From contig OZ234493.1 in the NCBI GenBank assembly GCA_965153455.1, positions 21,380,213 to 21,444,212 on the forward strand: a stretch of DNA of 64,000 nt, read 5' to 3'. Below, one piece after another: positions 7,000-43,380 of the stretch. Both the position numbers and the translations under genes were made by a program. The stretch comes from Sphagnum compactum. Taxonomy: Eukaryota. The first letter of the stretch is position 1. Each line of letters begins with the position of its first letter. Under the pieces are notes generated by a model that was given only the letters and a program-made list of their open reading frames with translations, did not search any database and was not told where the DNA came from.

Positions 7000-9900
7000 A
7001 CTTCCATGTAGGAAAAAAAAAAAGTTCAAACACCTACACATTCCAAAACAAATTCACAAAATGTCACATCATTATATAAAATGTATTGTGGACATTTGAA
7101 AATTCTTCACATTCAACCTCATTCGCAAATCCAACATCCAACTCTTTTGTCAAATTAAATTCAACCTCATATATATGCCAAATCTATAGGTTTCAAGCAA
7201 CTAGCACAAGGATTAGCTAGCCAATTTTTGTTCACAAAAATAAGATTGTCCAAGTTGACAATTTGCGGCCAACATCTCCAAAGTGTTGTGACAATTCTAT
7301 AAATATAATATATTCTTTTTATTTTGATATGGTAGGTTGGTTGGGATGCTCAATTTTTTTCATGATAATATAGCCACAGTGGGAAATTTTTGCTTTTCTA
7401 TTTGCCACCATGACAAAACACATTTGCAAATTTCTAGATCAATAGGATAACAATGTAATGATTAAAACTTTCTTGCCACAATGTCCTTATATGCGCATTT
7501 ATATATGTGTTAGACTACCAAAATAGATCATGACAGTCTATAAGTGAGGTAGATTCATTAAGGCCTTAAACCCTATTGGGCATCAATAACTTGAAAGCAT
7601 TCAACATTAGAGGCAACAACAATTGTCATAATCAACAACTAAGGTGGCATCAATTTCATGACCTAGATTAATCATCACCAACTGCATACTTTTATATTTG
7701 AAATCCAACATCAATACCAACATGTTGTGCCTTTTTTTTTTATCAACAAAATGCAAAAAAGAAAGGAAGGCCGTAAAGACCGTCAACACATGGTGCTTCC
7801 TATAAAAGAAGAGTTCATCCAATTCAAAATAAAAAACATTTGCCTCTTCTTTAACAAGTTGGCTGTCAAGGACCCTCTAGTCGGAAATCTCTTCACAAAG
7901 TTGTGACATTTAGATATGACAAAATGGAAGGCATCCCCAAGGAGCTAGTTCCTTTGAACATTGAGTGACAAAACTTTCACAACAACTTTGCAAACAACCC
8001 ATGTTGTGGTGAAGGAATGTGACTTTGTAATGTTATAATTTGATGGTTGTAGTTCACAATGCAATGGGAATTCAAAAAGTCAAAGTGTTTTAGAATAACG
8101 AAACTTGACTTGCAAACCTATAATCAACAACAAACGCAATTACACCACATTAGTGGAAATAATAAAGACCTAACAAAATTTTTGGACTCCTGTTAATTAA
8201 AACTTAATGATAAAAAAATGAAATAAAAATCACATTCACCTTGTCTTGACATGTGTGTTCAATTTTCTGGGTTTCAAGCCAGAATCTACGCAAGCTTTTT
8301 CCCATGTTTGCCTCCCCTTCCTAAACTTATGTGGCCAAGTAAATACACTTTTAGATATGAACTTGAACTATCCTTATGGATGCCTATGCCATGGGCCACT
8401 TTTTCATATGTAGTTGTATATTTGCACACCTTTGATAGGTCGTGCCAAAAGCATCATCCATCAAATGGATCCAACATACCTAAGCTTGCACATGAAACAA
8501 CAAATTCAAAGTATAATTGACACAAGTTTATAGATTTGATTCATCATTTTTGATGCAAGTAAGGATCTTATGAATAAGGAAAGACTTGTCAAGAAGTTAT
8601 AATTTTGGAACCATAATTGCACCACTAATGTCACTCATTTCAAACATTAACGCAATTGTAATCATGTGTTTATCCTCCCACATACTAGACAAAAATTAAC
8701 AACCATAGCAAAGACGTACGTGCCCCTTTTGACATCCATAAATTAAGTGTGCATGTAGTTGATAGACATTTTACCAGTGTTGGTTGACATAAGTAACCAT
8801 AGTCCTTTCCACCAATCCAAGTAAAATTTCATCCACCAAAACCTTTTTGCTAAGGAAGATCACCCTTGGGCATAACTTATATGCAAATCCTTGGAGCTAG
8901 ATGGATTCAATAATCCTCATGGGCAAGTGTTCCTTTCATCATAAAGAACATCAAATCCTCCAAGGAACCAACTTGTGTTTCATTATCCTTCTTGAATTTG
9001 TTAACATATGAAAAGACTCAAAAATGGCCAATGGTGTCACATGTGTCCTTTTTTTGGCTAGCCCATGGGCAAGTGGAGTAATAATTGCATTAGTTATATC
9101 GTTAAGGAATTTTTTAAGTACGACATTATATTCAATCTTGACATGCTTCTTCATGCTTGTAATTCCATTTGATTTATGGTAAGCAATGAAACCTTTCCAT
9201 AACTTAATGCATAATGCCAAAACTTTAAGACCCATGACTTCACTACGACAAACTATGCATTGCATTATTTGGTTTGGAAAAGGTAAATTGGTTGGTTGTT
9301 GTTCACCTTTGAAAACCCACGTTGGTGAATCTGATTATGAGGCTTCTAACGAACTGCTTGCTTTTTCAAATTTGTCATGTGCAAATTTAAAACATATGAA
9401 TCATCACTAGGAATAGGAATAACTTCGGCAAGATGAAGCTTTCCATTTGTTTCCGATAGGTTGTCAACATTAATGCTATTATCATGGCCTACAAATATTT
9501 GTACCATCTCCTCATTAGGTGACAAAACTCTTCATGACAAGACTTGAGGAACCCATACAAAACTTGTTGAAAGTTCACAACTTTTCACCCCCAAAAAATG
9601 CAAACAAAGGGGGTTCGGTGGGAGGTGAAAAAACAAAAGCTCACAAAGTCACCAAAAGAAAGACAAATGGGATTTGGTGAAAGGTTAAAAAATAGAGAAA
9701 TGGGAAAGAGATTGAAGGCCAAAGCTCAATGACAGTTGATAGAGCTTGCAATTTGCAACTCAACCCCAATTTTGCCCTCCTTCTTGGTATTTGCATTTTT
9801 TCCACCTTCCTTCCACATAATTGCTTCAGAGTCGAGGCAACAAGGTGATAGAAGTCATAAGGTGAAAGCTTCAAAGCTTTCACAAACCCTAAACCCTCAA

Positions 9901-16560: not shown

Positions 16561-17789
16561 TTAAACCTCAATCTTGAAAAACCCCCTTTAATCCCTTCAA
16601 ACCCTAAACTATTGCTTCAAAAGAAGTGTACTTACAAACAAAACGAAAAAACAAGAAGACACATTGCAACAAATTCACAAAAACCCAAAGAATGGGTGGG
16701 AATAGCAAGTGGACCTAACTATGGATTCGCCATTGCTCGTGTGTTGCTGCTCAAGGGCCCTACTCGATTGCGTGTTTGCTTTGCCTTGCTCCTATTTCAC
16801 TTTACCTCACACTGTCTACTCAACCTTGCCCTACCCTAAACAATAGTACCACTAGTAATATTGCCACTATTCCTACACTCTCAAACCCTAATAATTCCAC
16901 TAACTACTATTTTCTCAATTGTTGCTACTCCTCTCTCAAACCCTAATAATTCCATTGGCTAGCCAAAGCCTAGGTCTGGGGTCTTGGAAACTGCAGCTTT
17001 CTTCTTCTTCCAAAGCAGCCAACAGCAACTGCAACAGCCAGCAGCAGTCCCTGGAGGACATAGAGAAAAGAAGAAACAAGAACCTCCCAAGGCCAAGCAA
17101 AAAGAGAAAATGTCATCATCGTCTGACTGGCTTCCCAAAAGCCTATCTACTTCTGCTACCCAGCAGCTCATGTGTAGATTGGAGCGCTAAACTTTGCCCC
17201 CGCAGCATAACGGAAGGAAGGAAGGATCCTTTTGATCCTTTTGGTCATGCCAGAAACGTTTCTATCAGTGAACTCCACGTGACTCTAGAATGTAGGGATA
17301 CCAAACTTTGGCCCCATTTCTTTTGTTGTGGCTGAATCACAATGGGCCCAAAAGAGAATTTGTGTCAGCAAGTTAGGCCGAGTCTTTGTGCCATCTACTT
17401 TGAACTTTTAAAACTCCCGAGTCAATGCATGGCAGCAATGAGAGAGAGGGAAAGAAGCACCTTGAGTACCAAACATACACAAAATGCATAAATCAAAGGG
17501 GCTGATGTCCAACTATCATATACTTCACCTTTTGCACTTTAGTTTTAGTAGGGGAGAAACTCACAACAATTTTTTTTTGTCCTCACAGTTTGACTTGGTG
17601 TATGTGGGGGAAGATGTTAAAATCAGCCACATGTCTTTATTGGCCTTGCCTACCAAGGCAAGGATATTGTGTTTTGGTTCACTAGAGAGTATAGTAGCTT
17701 AAGGGATTTTGGCCCCCTAGGTAATAAAAGGTCTCTTTTTATATGAGGATTTTTGAAAGACGATATTTTGGCTTGTGTTGAGTTATGAT

Positions 17790-34674: not shown

Positions 34675-37600
34675 CTTTGACACAATCACACGGCAGAATG
34701 TGGCACTTGACCACACAGACGTTCATGCCAAGGCATGACACTCATAGGCACTGCTGGAGTAGAGCTCTTGATTTCTACAACTCTCTCTCTCAAGTAGAAA
34801 AGGATTTTTAAAGTTCTAGATCAGTCGTTAATGTGATCGTCTTCATTCTTCATACCTTCATATTCAAATTAGAGTAGTATTGTAGCATAGTTCTGATTCC
34901 CAGCCCCAGCCCCAGCTTTCCACTCAGATTAAATGTCGAACTCCTCCTCGAAACAGACAGAGTGACCAACGATCTCAGCAGAAAAAATTAAACAAGCTGT
35001 AGATGTTAAAAACCAGTACGAATCCAGACTTGATGGGAAACAACACATTTGAATGCCCGTTGCTCATAATACGCTAGTTGGACCCATTCTTCAGATCTGT
35101 TTCCAAAGGCATTCAGAAACTCTAGTCTAGAGATCTCTTGCCTAGTCCAGGAGCTCCATCTCCTGTTGTATATCTATCTCTGCAATCAGTAATGAAACCA
35201 AGGTCAATAGTCACTACCCCTTTCTTAGCTGCTTAGAGATGCTTCACACTCTTGCTAGCTACTCTCATGTTGTAAATCTATCTGATCTGCAATCATGCGT
35301 GAAACCATGAAGGTCACTCTGGTTTCTTAGCTGCTTAGAAATTCTTCACATATACAGAAACTCCTTGGTATATATATATATGTCTACTTCCAGGATCCAA
35401 CCAAAAGATACTCTCCATAATGAACTTCATGCAAACACTTGTACTAACAACAACCTTGTATCAAATGAGTACAACCACATGGTTACTTCATTTCATACAA
35501 GTGGTTGCACAAAGATCATCATTGCGAGCATCTTGGGCACCATTTTTTTCACAAAATACTTTGCACAAAAAATCATATTTTTCAGGTTGAAAAAATGCAA
35601 ATTTTCACCCCACAAAAAAACCCTTGTCAAAATCGGCCCCAAACCAGTGTTGGGCATGTATATGGTTTTTGATATATAAGTCAAGTGTATTTTAAAATAT
35701 ATTCACATGTAAATGTAGAATGGTGTAATTATAAAATCATAGAATACACACACATCTTGCTTTACACACCGTGTGAAACTGTAGAAAACAACATAAACTA
35801 ATAAATGAAAAAGTGCATGCCCTCACCTTGTGACCTAGCCCCTTTCTCTTGTTTGTTTTCCGTCCCTTTCTTCTTGTTGAACACTTGGAAGCTCCATTGC
35901 CTTTCATTCCATTTGTCCTCTTTTCAATCTTGTTCGGAGAGAGCCTTGAGAAAATCAAATAGAACTTCAAATTGGATGCATTTACAAGGCCACTCGTTCT
36001 ATTTGTTGAGTAGCCCTTCTATTTCTAGCATATTATTCTATTGCTATTGATAAATGAGATTAATATCTTTATCTTTTGATGAATATGGTAAGTTTTGATA
36101 ATTGATTAATAGCTAAGTTATATTTATAAATGAAGAAAACATCTTCAATTTGACCATTTTCTCTCTTCATAAATGATTATAAAAAAGTAAAATGTACAAA
36201 GATTAGAAATGTGTGTCCATGATATTGAATAGGCTACCATTAGTTCCATTGCAGAACAATATAGTACCTTGTAATTGGTGTGACCTGGCTCCAGAGGCTT
36301 CCCCAGATGTTGAATTGAACGTGTGTGTGTGTGTGTGTGTGTGTTGTGGAGGCTTGGAAGTAGATCCTCATTGTGTTGTCCAAGGATCTAATTTTGACAA
36401 CTTGACTAAGGTGGTTGCTGGCGCTTTTTTGCATTGTATGCTGTTGTGGCTATAGCAGATGATTACCCTACCAACACAGATATGAAGTTGATAAACATTC
36501 TCAATGAGAAATCCTTGTCATTTTGAAAAAAATTATAAATGAAAACAAACATAGAAGCGAAGCTAATATTCAACTCAAAAAATATACAGAGGAGCAAATC
36601 CAAATTTAATGACAACAAGAAATGAGAAATTGTATGCTAATGCATGAAAGGAATAGTGAGTTTTAATAAAGGGTCTTCTGATGCTTCAGAAATGACAGTA
36701 AACTGCATTTCTAAGCAATTCTTGTTCCCACTTCAATCTATGATTGTTGCAGGTCACAACAACTTTTGCACAGAAATACACACAACAAGATCTAAGTGTG
36801 TCCTCAGACCCTCGAAACAGTGTCCATAGTAAGGAACTTTTGAACAGAATGTGTCAAGTTTTACAGGGACACGCACATTACAAGTTCCAAGTATGTCATC
36901 AGAGCACGGTAATGTTTCCATGTTAAAGAAGTTTTGCACATTTATACACAACAAGATATAAGTGTCCTTAGCCTGTTTCTGGGTTTCCTCCTCATGAAGT
37001 TCAATGTTGAGAAAAGTTTTTGTTCATCTCTGGCCACGCACTTGTCCGCACAGTAGTTTGCAAAGGGTAGGACTTCTGTGGATATCAATAGTCTTAAACT
37101 TCCATCCCCTTTGCCTACATAAATCGAACTTGCGACGTGCTTCGCAGGGCATGCTCAGACGATTTGAGAGTGGAATGAATACTTCTTTTTCGGGTAGGGT
37201 TCTGATTCACACCAAAGAATGAACTGTTTTTTTACTTGTTAACCGCTTGATATTTTTTTCCCGCTTGCTGGGGAGGAGGAAGGGAACACAGAAACGGTGA
37301 AGGTGTGACGGAATGAAACAGCAGACGAAGATTGTTGTGGAAACAAAGCATTAGCAAAATTGTTGCTTTGGATACTGAGAATTGCGCACCTATTCTCCGC
37401 CCTGTGAATTTGAAATCTATTGAAGAAGATGCAACAGGGCTCCAATATGATCAATGAGAGATCATAAAGAGATCTCCTTCATGGAACTCTGCAGTCAGAC
37501 AAGGTGCAAGTGATTTGCAGTTTCTAGGGTTTATAAACAAAAGAGAGTTACAAAAGAAAAGATTTTATATAGTTCCCTGATTATAATTTCAATCTTCATG

Positions 37601-37844
37601 TGATTTGCAATTATAAAACTGGCTCTCCAATTTTCTTGCAGAAGTTCATGTGATATTTGAATTCTGGGCGTGGGTCTGAATACCTAAACGGATCTCTGCA
37701 CACGAATTTATATATTCACAGGACCAACTTTGCAGACTTGGCAATGGATTCAAGAGTTGAATAGCTGCAGAGATACAGGAGACTCCATAGGGATGAAGGC
37801 TGATGGAAACAGCATAGAAGATTTCCGACTTAAAAATGGCTACA

Positions 37845-37997
37845 AAATGTGCATGCGATGACAGCTTCCAGATCGAGAAATGCACAAAGCAAGTGATCAT
37901 CAAATACACTACTACTACAAAAATCTTTGCAGATTTCTTCACTGTGGACTTAAAAGTCATCGGTCGACTGGAATATACCTGCACTTAAAGACACTTG
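37845..37997 (-). ncRNA. Possible H/ACA snoRNA
   Basis: Two hairpins (tcttt..tgcagg/tctgcaaaga; gtgta..gatga/tcatc..tgcac) ending in ACAttt. The hinge AGTAGTA is not a canonical ANANNA. Confidence 0.35.
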
Positions 37998-38142
37998 CGA
38001 TGTGGAAAAGAAAGCACAAGGCAAGTAACACGGAGCAGGAGGTTTCTCTAGCACATGCTTAGGGCCTACTCTTCCTTAGAGATCAGAGCTGCCCGGGGAG
38101 CATTGTGCAGCATTCATAATGTTTACTGCTCCAGCCAAGGAA
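37998..38142 (-). ncRNA. Possible H/ACA snoRNA
   Basis: Hairpin ttccttgg..ggagca/tgctcc..ctaaggaa followed by H box AGAGTA (38067-38072), a weak second hairpin and ACA at 38001-38003. Confidence 0.35.
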
Positions 38143-38203
38143 CCCATAGAAGATAAACACCAAAAGGGCGTAGAAGAGAGTTACAGGAGACGAAAGTAGC
38201 AAA

Positions 38204-38287
38204 GCCTCAGAGAGAAGATCAGTTCTTTCTTCACAGTCCCACTGGACTCGAAGCACACACATCGATACGATTCTTTTCCTCATAGGC
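38204..38287 (-). ncRNA. Box C/D snoRNA predicted to guide U6 snRNA 2'-O-methylation (mgU6-47/SNORD7-like)
   Basis: gcct-ATGAGGA(C)...GTGAAGA(C')...CTGATCTTCTCT-CTGA(D)-ggc. The guide pairs with U6 AGAGAAGAUUAG (one G:U). The D+5 rule targets the A right after ACAGAG. Confidence 0.72.
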
Positions 38288-38368
38288 AGCTATTTCATAG
38301 CCCAGTTTTTGTGGCACAACAAGAAGAGTCAGATCAACACAGAAACCGAAAGAAGACCAACACAATAA

Positions 38369-38461
38369 GGCCTCATCGATCTTAGTGGTATTGTGTCTAA
38401 TCAGCTGGTGACAAAAAACGTGCACCATCAAGAGTAGCAAATACTGGTATAATCATCGGCC
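38369..38461 (-). ncRNA. U24: Box C/D snoRNA U24 (snR24/SNORD24-like)
   Basis: GGCC terminal stem and C box CGATGA. Guide TATTTGCTACT before D' TTGA is complementary to LSU rRNA AGUAGCAAAUA. C' CTGATTA. Guide ACCACTAAGATC before D-variant ATGA is complementary to LSU GAUCUUGGUGGU. Same dual-guide layout as yeast U24. Confidence 0.85.
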
Positions 38462-38864
38462 AACCCGATCTATCTACACTTTCTCTGCATCCTTGAAAAG
38501 ACGTACCCTCAAGCAGAAACTGAAAAAACCCTTAGAAAACTTCTAGAAACAATCAGAGCCACAGCAAGAAAACCCACAGACGAACGTAATATGGTGAGAG
38601 ATACGATAGAACACAGAATCCGAACATCAGAAACCCAAGGTAAGAAATCCACATCTGAAAGCAAGTTACGAGAACTGATTCATATCTAAGTCTGCAACTA
38701 GGAAAGTGGCATGCAAAGCATCCTCAGTCCTCAACAAACCAAACGCCAAGAGGAGCAAAACGATGAACACAGGCTTTCGATGTAGCCACAGTACAAAACC
38801 ATTTAAAGAGAAGTGCTGCAAGGATGTGTAGTTCAAGATATTGCTCTGCATCGGCCGGGAGCCG

Positions 38865-38944
38865 TTCATATACGCAAGAAAAATCTTAGGTCGGCTGCGC
38901 AAGTTTTGAAGGAGTGAAATTAGGGTTTGGGGAAATTAGGGTTT
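38865..38944 (-). promoter_or_regulatory. Telo-box x2 plus TATA-like box upstream of snoRNA cluster
   Basis: AAACCCTAAT twice on minus (38919-38928, 38935-38944) and TATATGAA at 38865-38872. Telo-box + TATA is typical of plant snoRNA and ribosome-biogenesis promoters. Confidence 0.6.
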
Positions 38945-40253
38945 CGTGGACGAAGATTCTCGCGCGCGATGTTTTGGTATCTGCGTTTGTTGCTGCTAAG
39001 TTACAAGCGATCTCCTCTACTCGATATGCCGGCCACCATGTTGGTAGGCAAGAACGAGCGAAGCTCAAAGGGCAGGCAAGAAGGGTGGTAAGTAAGATGA
39101 AGATGTCAGTAGAAATTCGCTCGCTGGGGGTGCTGCCCTTGCCCCCGCTGGAAGTGTCTCACCTCTGCGCATCGGGAACAAAACAAATCCGAGAAATAGA
39201 TCGGGTATGTAGTTTTGGAGCGTACTATTCTTCTACTTATAAGAAATTCCAGAGACTCAGCGATCGATACTACACATGAAGAAGAAGAAGAAGAAGAAAG
39301 ATAGATGGATCGTGGTGTTGATCCTTCACATTTAGTAGAAACCATGACTCTCTGATGACATGCATGCAAGTTGATTCAGCAAGGAGGCAGTCCGGTTTGT
39401 CATCGAAGCCTCCTTGGTTTTCCAGCTTCTTTCAAGAGGCGAGTTCAGACCATTAAACAGCAAAGTGACCATTTCTTGCTGCTGGTCCGGTGCCTGGAGA
39501 CTACAGTGAAGGTTTCGGTATGACGATTGAACATGTTGGAAATATAGTTGATGAGGAGGAGCCAGAAATCCCTGGTGCTTAAAACTGTCTTACAAACAAC
39601 TAGACTGTCACAAGTTGTCAAGGAACTCTGGCCACCGCAGCCGCTTTGTGTAAATAGCTGCTTAGTTTTTTGTCATCTTGCATCTGCAAATATTTGTGGA
39701 ATTGCCAAAATGTTCTAAGTACCACATTTGTGGTGAAGATTCATAAGATAACAGTAGAAGCAGTTTCAATGTTTGAACACAAATGGTGCAGTCCTGCATC
39801 AATGCTGTAGACATGGTATCAAGTCTGCCACTTTGGATGTAATTGTCAACTCAGATAAAGAAGAAGAAGTAAAGGACCGAATCCACAGTAAGTGTGAGAT
39901 TCCAATGTTATGAGATGGACATAGACTGATGCAGATTCACTGATGGAACTGTTGTTGACAAATAATTGTCCCCATGAAAACCTTTGTGGACACTGAAATT
40001 GATTTCTTCCAAAGACTAAGCTCTGTTCCAAGTACCAACCTAAGTACTACTCTGTTCCACTGCTAATGGGCATTTGCTAACTGAGCTTGGATAGTTAACT
40101 TCTCTATGGTTTTTTCTCACTCAGATATCAGGTTCAGGTTTCAGCTGTCTACAGTAGCATAGCTCAGAGTCTAGTTGTTGAGTGATGCACACCACCATGC
40201 CACTTCCATCAACACTCCAGGAATGGAACAAAACAAACAGTGCATCATCATTG

Positions 40254-40564
40254 CAGTGTATCATCATTGTGCATGATGATGCTTTGTCAACAACAAAGTG
40301 CATTGAATTTCCACATGATCAAGGGAATATGAATTCAGGAAGCTATTCTGAATTTCACACTGAGCTTTATCAACTTGTTGCTTGTCACCTCCCACATACT
40401 GTATTGGATTTTCAACACCAATACAGTGCATCATCATTGTGCATGATGATGCTTTGTCAACAACAAAGCGCATTGAATTTCTACATGATCCGGGGAATAG
40501 GAATTCAGGAAGCTATTCTGCATTTCACACTGAGCTTTATCAACTTGTTGCTTGTCACCTCCCA
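40254..40564 (+). repeat. Recent tandem duplication, 170 bp period
   Basis: cagtgYatcatcattgtgcatgatgatgc...cttgtcacctccca at 40254-40394 and 40424-40564, with few mismatches. Confidence 0.92.
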
Positions 40565-40867
40565 ACTATCAGAATCGAACCTTATGTAGTGTCTCTGGTT
40601 TTTTGCCATCATCCAGATACTGGTGGCAATTTTTCTGAGGCAAGAGTCAATTCCTGCAAAACAGAATCATGTTCACAATCAGTATCTCTTCCTCCCACAC
40701 AATTCAAGACACAAGCAAGGCAGTGTGCAATACAAAAAGATGTATAGAACCACAGACTGGTTTTGCACCAGTCCCATTCACAAGTCTGAAAGAATCAGCC
40801 ATGTCAACTGACGACAGTTAGCAAACCTCTTGAAACGTTATTAGGGAAAGTTGTAGCAGCAGGTCAC

Positions 40868-43380
40868 CTTCTCCTTGTGCTTGAAAAGAGTCTCCATCTT
40901 CTCAATGTACTTATCAGTAAGTTTCAGAAACATTGGTGGATAGACAAAGAATTCAAGGTATAGTCTAATTTTGGGCATGAAACAAACCTATTTTCTTAAC
41001 CACCTCAGAACACTCAATACGCATAATAGATTGTATAAATGATGATTGGAATGTATCTAGTGCAACTCTGTGTCACTAGCATGACCATCCTCAAACCAAA
41101 TTACATATAATTTACTTAATCCTCATTGAATATTAATATGAAAAAGCTTGGTAATCGTACCTGGATATCCTCAGACAAGTCCTTCACATTGTCAGCAGAG
41201 AGCTTCTTTTCCTATTGACGACAATTCTGTCATGTTCATGGAAGAGTACTGGGCATGTATATCCAACAACATGGTCCTGTGGTGCAAGCAGCATGTCTGT
41301 AAGCTCGCCACAAATGAATTATCAAAGAAGCTAGCTACCCAACAAATAGAAGCCAGCACAAAAGTATGTGCACTGATGCAGTGCAAACTGGCAGAAAAAT
41401 GACAGAGAAGCAAAACAACCTTTTCAAGTTTGTCATATACTTTGATTGCATCTCCTCACATTTGACAATGCCCCACCTGCCATCCCATTACTCCCAAATT
41501 TCCACAACTCAGGAAATTCAACAGAGAGTAACATAAGGATCTTTCAGATGAGGAGAGTGGTTATCCATCCATGCTAAACAGTGGCACAGTCCTTCACACA
41601 TGTAACAGATATTCAATATTCTTTACTGTTTCCTGCATTGTGATATACAACCTAAAGAGGACAAGACTCACCAGTTTCAGGTTGCAAAATCTGTTCACAG
41701 CATTTTGATGCTCCAATCAATTGAAGCATCAGCAGCCCACAGTAAGTGTATATTCCTTGCACAGAAGCTATTGGATCATTTACCATGGCAGTGCATCAAA
41801 TGGTCCCAACAAAGAAACTACTTTGTCCCGGAAGGCAGCAAACCTTGCCATCTTCTGTAAGTTTTGAGACCAGTTTCAAAAGTTCCTGCAAAATAGAAAT
41901 CATGCAGCCTTAATGGCAGTTCCCAACAATTCATATGGCCCCCAATTCAACCTGCATTGCATACTGTGCAGCAGATTATAAACTGCCTGCTTCCATGATC
42001 CATCAAAGGGTTATTCCATCTGGGTTACAATAGTGTACAGTTGGTTATCTAGCATCTACACCTGAGTGTGTGAAACTCATCACAAAACACTTTCATTTAT
42101 TTCCTCCTCAAATGTTCTATCGACAACATGTCCATTCCTTCTGAGTCTAAAATGATTATCTGCACAGAAAGATTAGCACTTCATTGTGCTGTGAAGAAAA
42201 ACAAACATTCCTCCTATCTGCACTGAGTTGTCGGACATTGAGTCTGATCACATTTCCATCATTGCTTGGTGTGAGGCCCAAGTCAGACTTCATAAGAGCT
42301 TTCTCTATTGCTGCAAGACTGCATAACAAAGACTCCAAACACTCAAAAAAAGCACAGAAATCTCAAACCATCCAAAGATGGAGTACACTACTCTATTACA
42401 TTTCATCTCCAGATTCACTCATCTCTGTGTACCAATTTGTCTCATTATCTATTCTAAAATATATGCTTCTGTGTCCATGAAAACGTTGCTAAACCCAGCA
42501 TAGATGCCAGGGAAAGTCCTTCAAGCCAGAGTGCCTCTTCCGTGGAGATCAGAGAGCTCATAACAGGAAGACAAAGTCACCTTGATTTGTGAAAGGGTTG
42601 GATGAGGAGTGTGCTACTATCTGGTGTGCTGACTTGGGCAATGCTTTTGAGGATGACCAGAATGCCATAGTATTCCACCTTCCAATTGGCAAAAGAACTC
42701 AATCCCTCAAAAACCTGTGACCAGTATTATTGTGCTTCTGGTCTGAAACAGAAAATGGAATTTTCATAAAAAATCATGTGAGTTCCAACACACCTCAACA
42801 TGGTCCAACAATGAAGGGCTTGCTCTGCCTGTGCACACAGTATTAAAATTTGATCTTGTAACCTCCCATGTCTTCTCCATCCTCTCCGTCTATGATCTCA
42901 AACCTAGTGCATATTAGTGTTAATCCCAACAGAGGTCATGGCTCTCAGTACATCTATCAAGGCGTGTTTGCGTTGTGTGCAAGCCAAAAAACATTAGGAA
43001 AATTGGGAACTTCTCAAGGCTTACAATCGAAGTTCACTTTGAATAGAAATCATGAGATGATGACATGATAAACCATGCCTAAGAAAGCCAGAAAGCAATC
43101 ATCAATTTCCACAAGATCTATCGTTGAGTGAAAGAAGATTCACTGCACCTAGTTCAATCATGTCCTTCTCTGCTTCAACATCTTCAGTACTTGCTCCACA
43201 GATAAGAAGAGACTTGCTAATATCATGCAAACACTGACATATGCCAAATATTGAAGAAGTAGCAAATCTATCGTACCTTTCAGATCTTTGGGAGTCCTTG
43301 ATGCTCAAAGGGAAAAGAATGGAAACTGGATTCCTTCCAAGCTCAGATGTCTTTGAGTCAATGTGGAGACACCATGGCAT
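40868..43380 (-). pseudogene. RRF: Plastid ribosome recycling factor (RRF) pseudogene, intron-containing
   Basis: Eight exons in order: ..EDVEAEKDMIELGA | TERMEKTWEVTRSNFNTVCTGRASPSLLDHVE | VEYYG..LKSIAQVSTPDSSTLLIQPFHKS | [28 protein letters not shown] | ELLKLVSKLTEDGK | exon ~41420-41476 with shifted frame and TGA | EKKLSADNVKDLSEDIQ | KLTDKYIEKMETLFKHKEK (acceptor mutated to CTG). Confidence 0.88.

Follow-up and report, generated by a model that had tools for sequence, protein, structure and literature searches.

A probable snoRNA gene cluster with a telo-box promoter in Sphagnum compactum, carrying U24, a U6-directed box C/D RNA and snoR134

Overview of the cluster

The stretch studied here, positions 37,845-38,944 of a 64,000-nt piece of Sphagnum compactum DNA (GCA_965153455.1, OZ234493.1, 21,380,213-21,444,212 of the forward strand; this whole piece is called the window, and position 1 is its first letter), very probably holds an ordinary nuclear, plant-type gene cluster of small nucleolar RNAs (snoRNAs) from a moss-like land plant. 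The cluster comprises three guide RNAs, namely the box C/D snoRNA U24, a second box C/D RNA directed at U6 small nuclear RNA (snRNA), and the box H/ACA snoRNA snoR134, placed behind a telo-box promoter. On the minus strand the order is two telo-boxes, the hexamer TATATG, a T-rich leader of ~379 nt, and three RNA-sized blocks spaced 80 and 92 nt apart (Table 1). A preliminary description of this stretch had listed a U24-type RNA, a second C/D RNA, and two H/ACA candidates. U24, the C/D RNA, and one of the H/ACA candidates stand, whereas the other candidate (37845-37965) does not and is no gene.

According to Rfam, the whole window contains exactly two gathering-level matches, SNORD24 and snoR134, and both are located in the cluster on the same strand. 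The U24 match in particular lies above its gathering threshold (46.2 bits vs 41). A permissive scan of positions 36000-40000 (E<=10) reports 11 matches, among which the sole additional one of interest is a weak snoZ30a alignment at 38203-38288. As for coding potential, 0 of the 4 open reading frames (ORFs) that overlap the cluster and 0 of the 17 ORFs scanned match any Pfam family, in agreement with the earlier impression that the stretch has no credible ORF.

Scanning metagenomes with 20 nt of U24 gave 13 loci, 6 of them in relatives; the remaining 7 are chance matches in unrelated coding-like DNA and were left out of all comparisons. The relatives fall into three lineages: L051, L060, and L062 (~86% identical over 3 kb), L054 and L063 (~83%), and the distant L055. 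SNORD24 and snoR134 are both reported by Rfam in all 6 relatives, with 7 copies of each. In L055 only the three RNA blocks match the window according to BLAST, in the same order, and the spacers no longer align; the blocks of this contig follow one another as U24, U6 guide, snoR134, snoR134, and U24. The same short contig (L055 1-1092, minus strand) ends within the first part of yet another U24-like gene, the third, and the cluster is tandemly amplified there.

U24 and snoR134

The Rfam score and two 13-bp guides against ribosomal RNA (rRNA) bear out the U24-type RNA of the preliminary description. The D guide forms 13 bp, including one G.U pair, which put a C at D+5 in two eukaryotic large-subunit (LSU) rRNAs (C1474 of the reference LSU). 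The D' guide, with UUGA taken as the D' box, also forms 13 bp and puts an A at D'+5, which is A1486 of the reference LSU, 12 nt downstream of C1474. The U24 target pattern, defined by the reverse complements of both guides, was scanned over genome contigs, and the two complements abut with zero gap in at least 49 database loci. Four of these loci were given to Rfam: three are eukaryotic LSU rRNA (L023 has 5.8S too), and no rRNA match is reported for L026. The L023 record comprises LSU and 5.8S, and the small-subunit (SSU) sequence of the same record was taken from adjacent DNA.

The known U24 targets are C1437 (D) and A1449/G1450 (D') in yeast, and C1447 and A1459/G1460 in Arabidopsis (PMC8053127). 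The two sites found here are equated with these positions because of the identical 12-nt spacing and the sequence context. U24 would bind fibrillarin-type C/D proteins, and its D guide would direct 2'-O-methylation of the 25S C corresponding to yeast C1437 and Arabidopsis C1447. The D' guide would direct the A, and probably the next G too, that correspond to A1449/G1450 and A1459/G1460. The complementarity can be read directly, and methylation is predicted from the sequence.

The predicted fold of U24 is more stable than that of shuffled sequences (z = -2.90). Its boxes are identical in all 5 distinct sequences aligned, and its guides are invariant. Of the 27 predicted pairs, 2 have both partners changed, and these belong to the internal D'/C' stem. 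Like U24/snR24/SNORD24, the RNA has a gathering-level score and directs both guides to the same adjacent 25S sites as in yeast and Arabidopsis (D on C, D' on A 12 nt downstream). It differs by an insertion of 18 nt, which makes up the internal D'/C' hairpin, and its C box (AUGAUUA) and D box (AUGA) are variants of the consensus.

One of the two hairpin-pair/ACA candidates noted in the preliminary description turns out to be snoR134, whose fold is also better than that of shuffled sequences (z = -2.31). Compensatory changes affect 4 of its 38 predicted pairs. The P2 pocket forms 8+3 bp around the unpaired UC of SSU uuugacUCaacacggg, at U1157 of the reference SSU. This site is the best of the 5 matches listed, the other 4 being unrelated sites with 9-10 bp. 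In both L055 copies the pocket strands differ yet fit the same SSU site with 8+6 bp, as read from the alignment. According to the tables of PMC2875012 and PMC2685112, P2 of Arabidopsis snoR134 is assigned to 18S-1192 and is equivalent to yeast snR35 and human ACA13. For the P1 pocket, which in Arabidopsis targets 18S-1104, the reference SSU and LSU, which are non-plant rRNAs, gave no matching site.

The 3' pocket of snoR134 would direct pseudouridylation of the 18S helix-31 loop U; the pocket fit is observed, and the modification is what it predicts. AtsnoR134/snR35/ACA13 and the RNA described here have in common a gathering-level score, the two-hairpin H/ACA architecture, and a 3' pocket that fits the 18S helix-31 loop uridine. 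The latter differs in its 3' box AUA, in having only 3 bp on the 3' pocket strand, and in its P1 pocket, for which the reference rRNAs offer no site. When positions 36700-39000 were searched for stretches antisense to the rRNAs, 8-12 rows resulted from unanchored scans and 20 rows from scans anchored at boxes. These counts are within the ranges obtained for shuffled sequences (3-11 and 5-21, respectively), and none of the rows is meaningful beyond the U24 guides.

Promoter region and upstream block

Two telo-boxes and a TATA-like box had been noted on the minus strand, and all three are present where they had been placed. The test for the telo-box AAACCCTA gives two conserved copies, 48-72 nt upstream of TATATG, and these copies together with the TATA-like box are nearly invariant in the aligned relatives. 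The window contains 11 telo-boxes vs 1.09 expected, a number that 0 of 100 shuffles reach. Telo-boxes are described as a hallmark of plant polycistronic snoRNA promoters in PMC4660826, according to which the promoters of plant snoRNA clusters have a Telo-box plus Site II, placed upstream of a TATA box. Following the published Arabidopsis model, the telo-box/TATA-like promoter most likely drives RNA polymerase II through ~1.4 kb (from ~38840 to 37400, minus strand), and the T-rich precursor would then be cut and trimmed into the three guide RNAs.

As for the nine further exact telo-boxes of the window, three lie within 350 nt at 16599-16946 (plus strand), and the others are located at 9884, 19126, 30909, 44081, 58663, and 61171. 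They may mark other promoters of translation-related genes, and the number of telo-boxes is ten times the chance expectation for the window.

The telo-box promoter may be shared with a conserved, transcribed block just upstream (39029-39500), which may represent a divergent non-coding transcript. An alternative in which the telo-box region serves chiefly, or in addition, as promoter for a divergent plus-strand transcript from ~39029, and in which the cluster shares this promoter or uses it secondarily, has a tangible although clearly minor probability. The block is 0.87-1.0 identical in relatives, above the snoRNA leader, and one relative has a metatranscriptome contig of 525 nt that starts at 39029 and extends beyond 39267. 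Telo-boxes also occur on the promoters of ribosomal-protein and translation genes, as mentioned in PMC4660826. However, no coding exon stands out, since Pfam gives nothing for the ORF at 38950-39276 and the ORFs of the plus strand have a non-coding appearance; the same-species RNA run has zero depth in 38875-39300, and the relative's contig shows neither strand nor start. A divergent transcript is, moreover, compatible with a snoRNA gene cluster on the minus strand.

Target of the second box C/D RNA

The second C/D RNA, which the preliminary description placed 80 nt downstream of U24, is confirmed by its C/D boxes, its terminal stem, and a putative element antisense to U6. With UCUCU directly 5' of CUGA, position D+5 would fall on the last A of the ACAGAGA box in U6, and the 12-nt D guide would pair with the ACAGAGA region of U6 snRNA. 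The RNA is 0.95-1.0 identical in close relatives, and the antisense element is its best-conserved part across lineages. In L055 the boxes, the stem, and the guide core AUCUUCUCU are kept although the flanks do not align. The second C/D RNA would be a stand-alone functional counterpart of mgU6-47: its boxes, guide, and conservation are observed, and the pairing is predicted from the U6 sequence and from published descriptions.

According to a review (PMC5855946), the ACAGAGA box is perfectly conserved, and human U6 is 2'-O-methylated at A47 by the guide mgU6-47, which is conserved in S. pombe. In Arabidopsis, U27-2 is listed with Am42/U6 for its D guide, homologous to human Am47 (mgU6-47), and with Am28/18S for its D' guide (PMC2685112, Table 2). 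The same Arabidopsis U6 site is numbered A43 in a later paper (PMC8053127). Similarly to mgU6-47/Z30/SNORD7 and U27-2, the RNA described here has a D guide that ends in UCUCU before CUGA, which would bring the last A of ACAGAGA to D+5. Its membership in the mgU6-47/Z30/SNORD7 group is, however, not demonstrable by sequence (17.4 vs 80 bits), and its C box is AUGAGGA. In contrast to Arabidopsis U27-2, it lacks the D' guide for 18S-A28.

A U27 identity was considered and rejected: within its initial 60 nt, the reference SSU gives no match longer than 6 nt. The inner region of the RNA has 2 rRNA matches of at least 9 bp, vs 1-9 in 20 shuffles, and Rfam reports no SNORD27 match for it. The complement of the guide core AUCUUCUCU is absent from SSU, 5.8S, and two LSU rRNAs. 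Other families of U6 guides have no Rfam match at E<=10 in 36000-40000.

It is rather unlikely, yet worth weighing, that this middle RNA is real and is nevertheless an orphan or has another target, the ACAGAGA match being fortuitous. Several observations speak for such a coincidence and against the U6 assignment. In the predicted 12-bp duplex of 38223-38211 with U6, which has one G.U pair, only 9 bp are uninterrupted and conserved, followed by G.U in the window and by a U.U mismatch in L055. A U6 sequence was looked for in three genomes and in viral contigs and was found in neither. The snoZ30a alignment of 38203-38288 covers the common 3' guide and D box and scores at noise level (17.4 bits, E 2.3, gathering 80), and the C box is non-consensus. 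Finally, in a 966-nt contig of a relative, organism A, a spacer of 100 nt (133 in the window) separates U24 from the U6 antisense element. This contig is identical to the window over 23 nt (38211-38233, minus strand) and continues with 19 letters unlike the D box and stem of the window, so that the expected D box does not follow the element. This divergence may reflect a chimeric end, a paralogue, or a lineage difference.

On the other side, the element is located exactly 5' of a canonical CUGA and is better conserved across lineages than the rest of the RNA, no rRNA target was found for the middle RNA, and Rfam snoZ30a is defined by this very element at the corresponding place. In addition, the same U6 site is guided by the D guide of Arabidopsis U27-2 and by human mgU6-47, according to the papers mentioned above.

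With Arabidopsis U27-2, plants were already known to have a guide for the U6 site in question, and only the stand-alone carrier and the composition of the cluster are new. The novelty of the U24 plus U6-guide arrangement was overrated in the preliminary description, since a plant guide for the U6 site is in print and mixed clusters are the rule in plants. A tentative step further would be to regard the middle RNA as the true bryophyte orthologue of the stand-alone mgU6-47 of animals and fission yeast, which is possible and still clearly the less probable option. If true, a dedicated single-target guide for the U6 ACAGAGA box would have existed in the ancestor that plants, fungi, and animals share. 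The angiosperm U27 arrangement, with the U6 guide on the D side and the 18S guide beside it, would then have arisen later by guide capture or fusion.

Transcription and remaining alternatives

Same-species raw reads from a poly(A) library (~12% of one run) provide 17 reads for the locus, of which 15 are at least 99% identical. They occupy 17 contiguous bins (37396-38874) with zero splice joints. The reads reach the 38788-38874 bin, and an RNA contig of a relative ends at 38837. Where read pairs cover 37396-38700, the first mate matches the plus strand, an orientation that in most stranded libraries corresponds to minus-strand RNA. As for the polycistronic nature of the unit claimed in the preliminary description, low-depth reads do run across the whole of it, whereas their strand is ambiguous.

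It seems improbable that the three RNAs are real but form no independent polycistronic gene, lying instead in an exon or intron of a larger non-coding host transcript that is polyadenylated and may be spliced. For a pre-snoRNA, both flanks are long (379 nt in the leader and 575 nt or more in the trailer), the library that yielded the covering reads is poly(A)-selected, and intronic clusters are known in plants according to PMC4660826. No joint was seen, however, among the 17 reads and 17 continuous bins, a test of low power; the TATA-like box and the telo-boxes are situated 30-100 nt upstream of the start of coverage, and there are no reads in 38875-39300.

A decaying copy, in which the three RNAs are pseudogenes and functional snoRNA copies exist elsewhere in the genome, is very improbable: non-consensus boxes (AUGA and AUGAUUA in U24, AUA in snoR134) and a P2 3' pocket strand weaker than in L055 would fit it, but every lineage examined has the same variant boxes fixed, for U24 even the distant L055, the guides are invariant while the spacers diverge, the stems show compensatory changes, the locus is transcribed, and the promoter is nearly invariant.

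A snoRNA gene cluster transcribed from the telo-box promoter remains the preferred reading, and a number of further observations weigh against it. The C box AUGAUUA and the D box AUGA of U24 are both non-consensus. As its 3' box, snoR134 has AUA in the lineage of the window, with L051 and L054, and ACA in the two copies of L055. AUA may be tolerated as a 3' box in H/ACA RNAs. In the lineage of the window the 3' side of the P2 pocket has only 3 bp, and the P1 pocket has no site in the reference SSU or LSU, which are non-plant rRNAs; all the reference rRNAs (SSU, 5.8S, and LSU) come from another eukaryote and not from this plant.

The promoter, in turn, lacks one expected element. No Site II (TGGGCY) occurs in 38305-41733, hence none in the promoter interval, and because of this the full TeloSII combination is not shown. 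The nearest TGGGCY is located at 38299-38304, within the transcribed cluster, and the 44 occurrences in the window are at chance level (47.3). TATATG is also not among the TATA hexamers given in PMC4660826.

Regarding transcription, the read pairs over 38527-38874 have the opposite orientation, and because the pair orientation changes, the precursor and the leader coverage are ambiguous in strand, and the start is ambiguous too. Discrete mature RNAs were not seen in the sole raw-read run, which is poly(A)-selected and shallow. RNA runs that contain parts of the stretch carry labels of moss or plant metatranscriptomes. The RNA runs X1-X23 contain 0.08-0.10 of the sampled words; among the 4 runs aligned, X5 and X12 have only short conserved pieces at 90-95% identity, and X18 gives no alignment to the stretch. 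X5, X12, and X18 are uninformative on habitat or expression level because they have little or no matching sequence.

Comparison with known plant clusters

According to PMC2875012 and PMC4660826, plants as a rule have polycistronic snoRNA clusters of mixed type. Among angiosperms, U24 is clustered with snoR12 (PMC5122169), and snoR134 with U36a/U38/snoR6/snoR97 (PMC2875012). The cluster described here resembles those of Arabidopsis and rice in that different guides, C/D and H/ACA mixed, are arrayed head to tail along a single strand with gaps of 80-92 nt and without an ORF, with telo-boxes upstream of a TATA-like box and reads across the whole unit. In contrast to them, it has no Site II in the promoter interval and a long leader of ~379 nt, its host is moss-like and not an angiosperm, and its membership is different. 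A limited literature search returned no paper on moss snoRNA gene clusters by title, which does not prove their absence.

The cluster adds a snoRNA gene cluster from a bryophyte-grade plant and suggests that the design of telo-box plus polycistron reaches beyond seed plants. Membership appears to be reshuffled: U24, the U6 guide, and snoR134 stand together here and belong to three separate clusters or carriers in Arabidopsis. The locus also offers a testable handle on 2'-O-methylation of the catalytic U6 ACAGAGA box, and gene targeting may be practical in the organism. It does not change how snoRNAs are understood to work.

Feature coordinates, rejected candidates and neighbouring features

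Table 1. Features of the predicted snoRNA gene cluster in window coordinates, listed in the order of the minus strand
Feature	Position	Strand	Remarks
Telo-box 1	38936-38944	-	AAACCCTAA, exact match; identical in L051 and L054
Telo-box 2	38920-38928	-	AAACCCTAA, exact match; kept in L051, one change in L054 (GAACCCTAA)
TATA-like box	38867-38872	-	TATATG, direct reading; invariant with its flanks in L051 and L054
Precursor leader	38462-38840	-	~379 nt; 5' end predicted near 38840
U24 snoRNA	38369-38461	-	Rfam SNORD24 (RF00069), 46.2 bits vs gathering 41; model 1-76 matched full length
U24 terminal stem		-	GGCC/GGCC, direct reading
U24 C box	38456-38450	-	AUGAUUA, direct reading
U24 D' guide	38445-38433	-	
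U24 D' box	38431-38428	-	UUGA
U24 C' box	38403-38398	-	UGAUUA
U24 D guide	38390-38378	-	
U24 D box	38376-38373	-	AUGA, direct reading
Spacer 1	38289-38368	-	80 nt; 0.60 pyrimidine, 0.43 T; no alignment to L055
C/D RNA with U6-directed D guide	38203-38288	-	exactly 80 nt downstream of U24
U6 guide RNA stem		-	UGCC/GGCU
U6 guide RNA C box	38283-38277	-	AUGAGGA
U6 guide RNA C'-like box	38234-38228	-	GUGAAGA
U6 guide RNA guide	38223-38211	-	ACUGAUCUUCUCU, directly upstream of the D box
U6 guide RNA D box	38210-38207	-	CUGA
Spacer 2	38111-38202	-	92 nt; 0.64 pyrimidine; 0.80-0.93 identity in close relatives
snoR134	37971-38110	-	Rfam RF01430, 58.7 bits vs gathering 40; model 1-149 matched
snoR134 H box	38049-38044	-	AGAGAA
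snoR134 P2 pocket strands	38034-38027 and 37992-37990	-	
snoR134 3' box	37976-37974	-	AUA, 3 nt from the end
Trailer	37396-37970	-	under poly(A) reads; includes the rejected candidate 37845-37965; no RNA family match on the minus strand

The spacers, called pyrimidine-rich in the preliminary description, are only mildly so: their pyrimidine fractions of 0.60 and 0.64 compare with a window mean of 0.51 and a 95th percentile, computed over 85-nt windows, of 0.647. The leader has 0.40 T and 0.59 pyrimidine, and its conservation (0.72-0.97 per 30 nt) is below that of the RNAs.

The second hairpin pair with an ACA end (37845-37965) was rejected according to several observations. None of the 11 Rfam matches in the permissive scan of 36000-40000 falls on it, and its fold is no better than that of shuffled sequences (z = +0.59, with 141 of 200 shuffles folding at least as well). 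Its stem and ACA are lost in close relatives, L051 having a 19-nt deletion that takes out the 5' stem arm and L054 having GCA instead of ACA, and the distant L055 has no counterpart. A possible fourth RNA in the leader, suggested by a conserved patch with CUGA after UUCUUACCUUGGGUUU (~38650-38627), was also rejected. It has neither a conserved C box nor a terminal stem, its fold does not stand out (z = +0.12), and there is no counterpart in L055. Against rRNA this patch pairs over no more than 8 bp, two G.U pairs included, and among 200 shuffled guides 152 attain at least 9 bp.

A C/D-like candidate is located at 36797-36905 on the minus strand, ~1 kb downstream of the cluster, with C box CUGAUGA (CUGAGGA in relatives) and D box CUGA. 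Its D-guide region is nearly invariant and its stem partly conserved, and a 151-nt contig of a relative matches it with 90-95% identity; no supported rRNA target was found for it. Upstream of this candidate, at ~36960-37040 (minus strand), a degenerate tandem copy has lost the D box and gives a weak Rfam snoR126 match (24 bits, E 0.34). On the plus strand, a tandem repeat with a unit of ~160 nt at ~40180-40750 is visible as repeated peptide strings in ORF translations.

The database searches also revealed eukaryotic ribosomal DNA in bacterial records. A complete set (SSU, 5.8S, and LSU) is present in L023/L050 (contig 10), inside a 532-kb contig labelled as an Actinomycetota metagenome-assembled genome, and dozens of bacterial assemblies among L001-L049 include short eukaryotic LSU contigs, which looks like contamination or mis-binning in public genomes.

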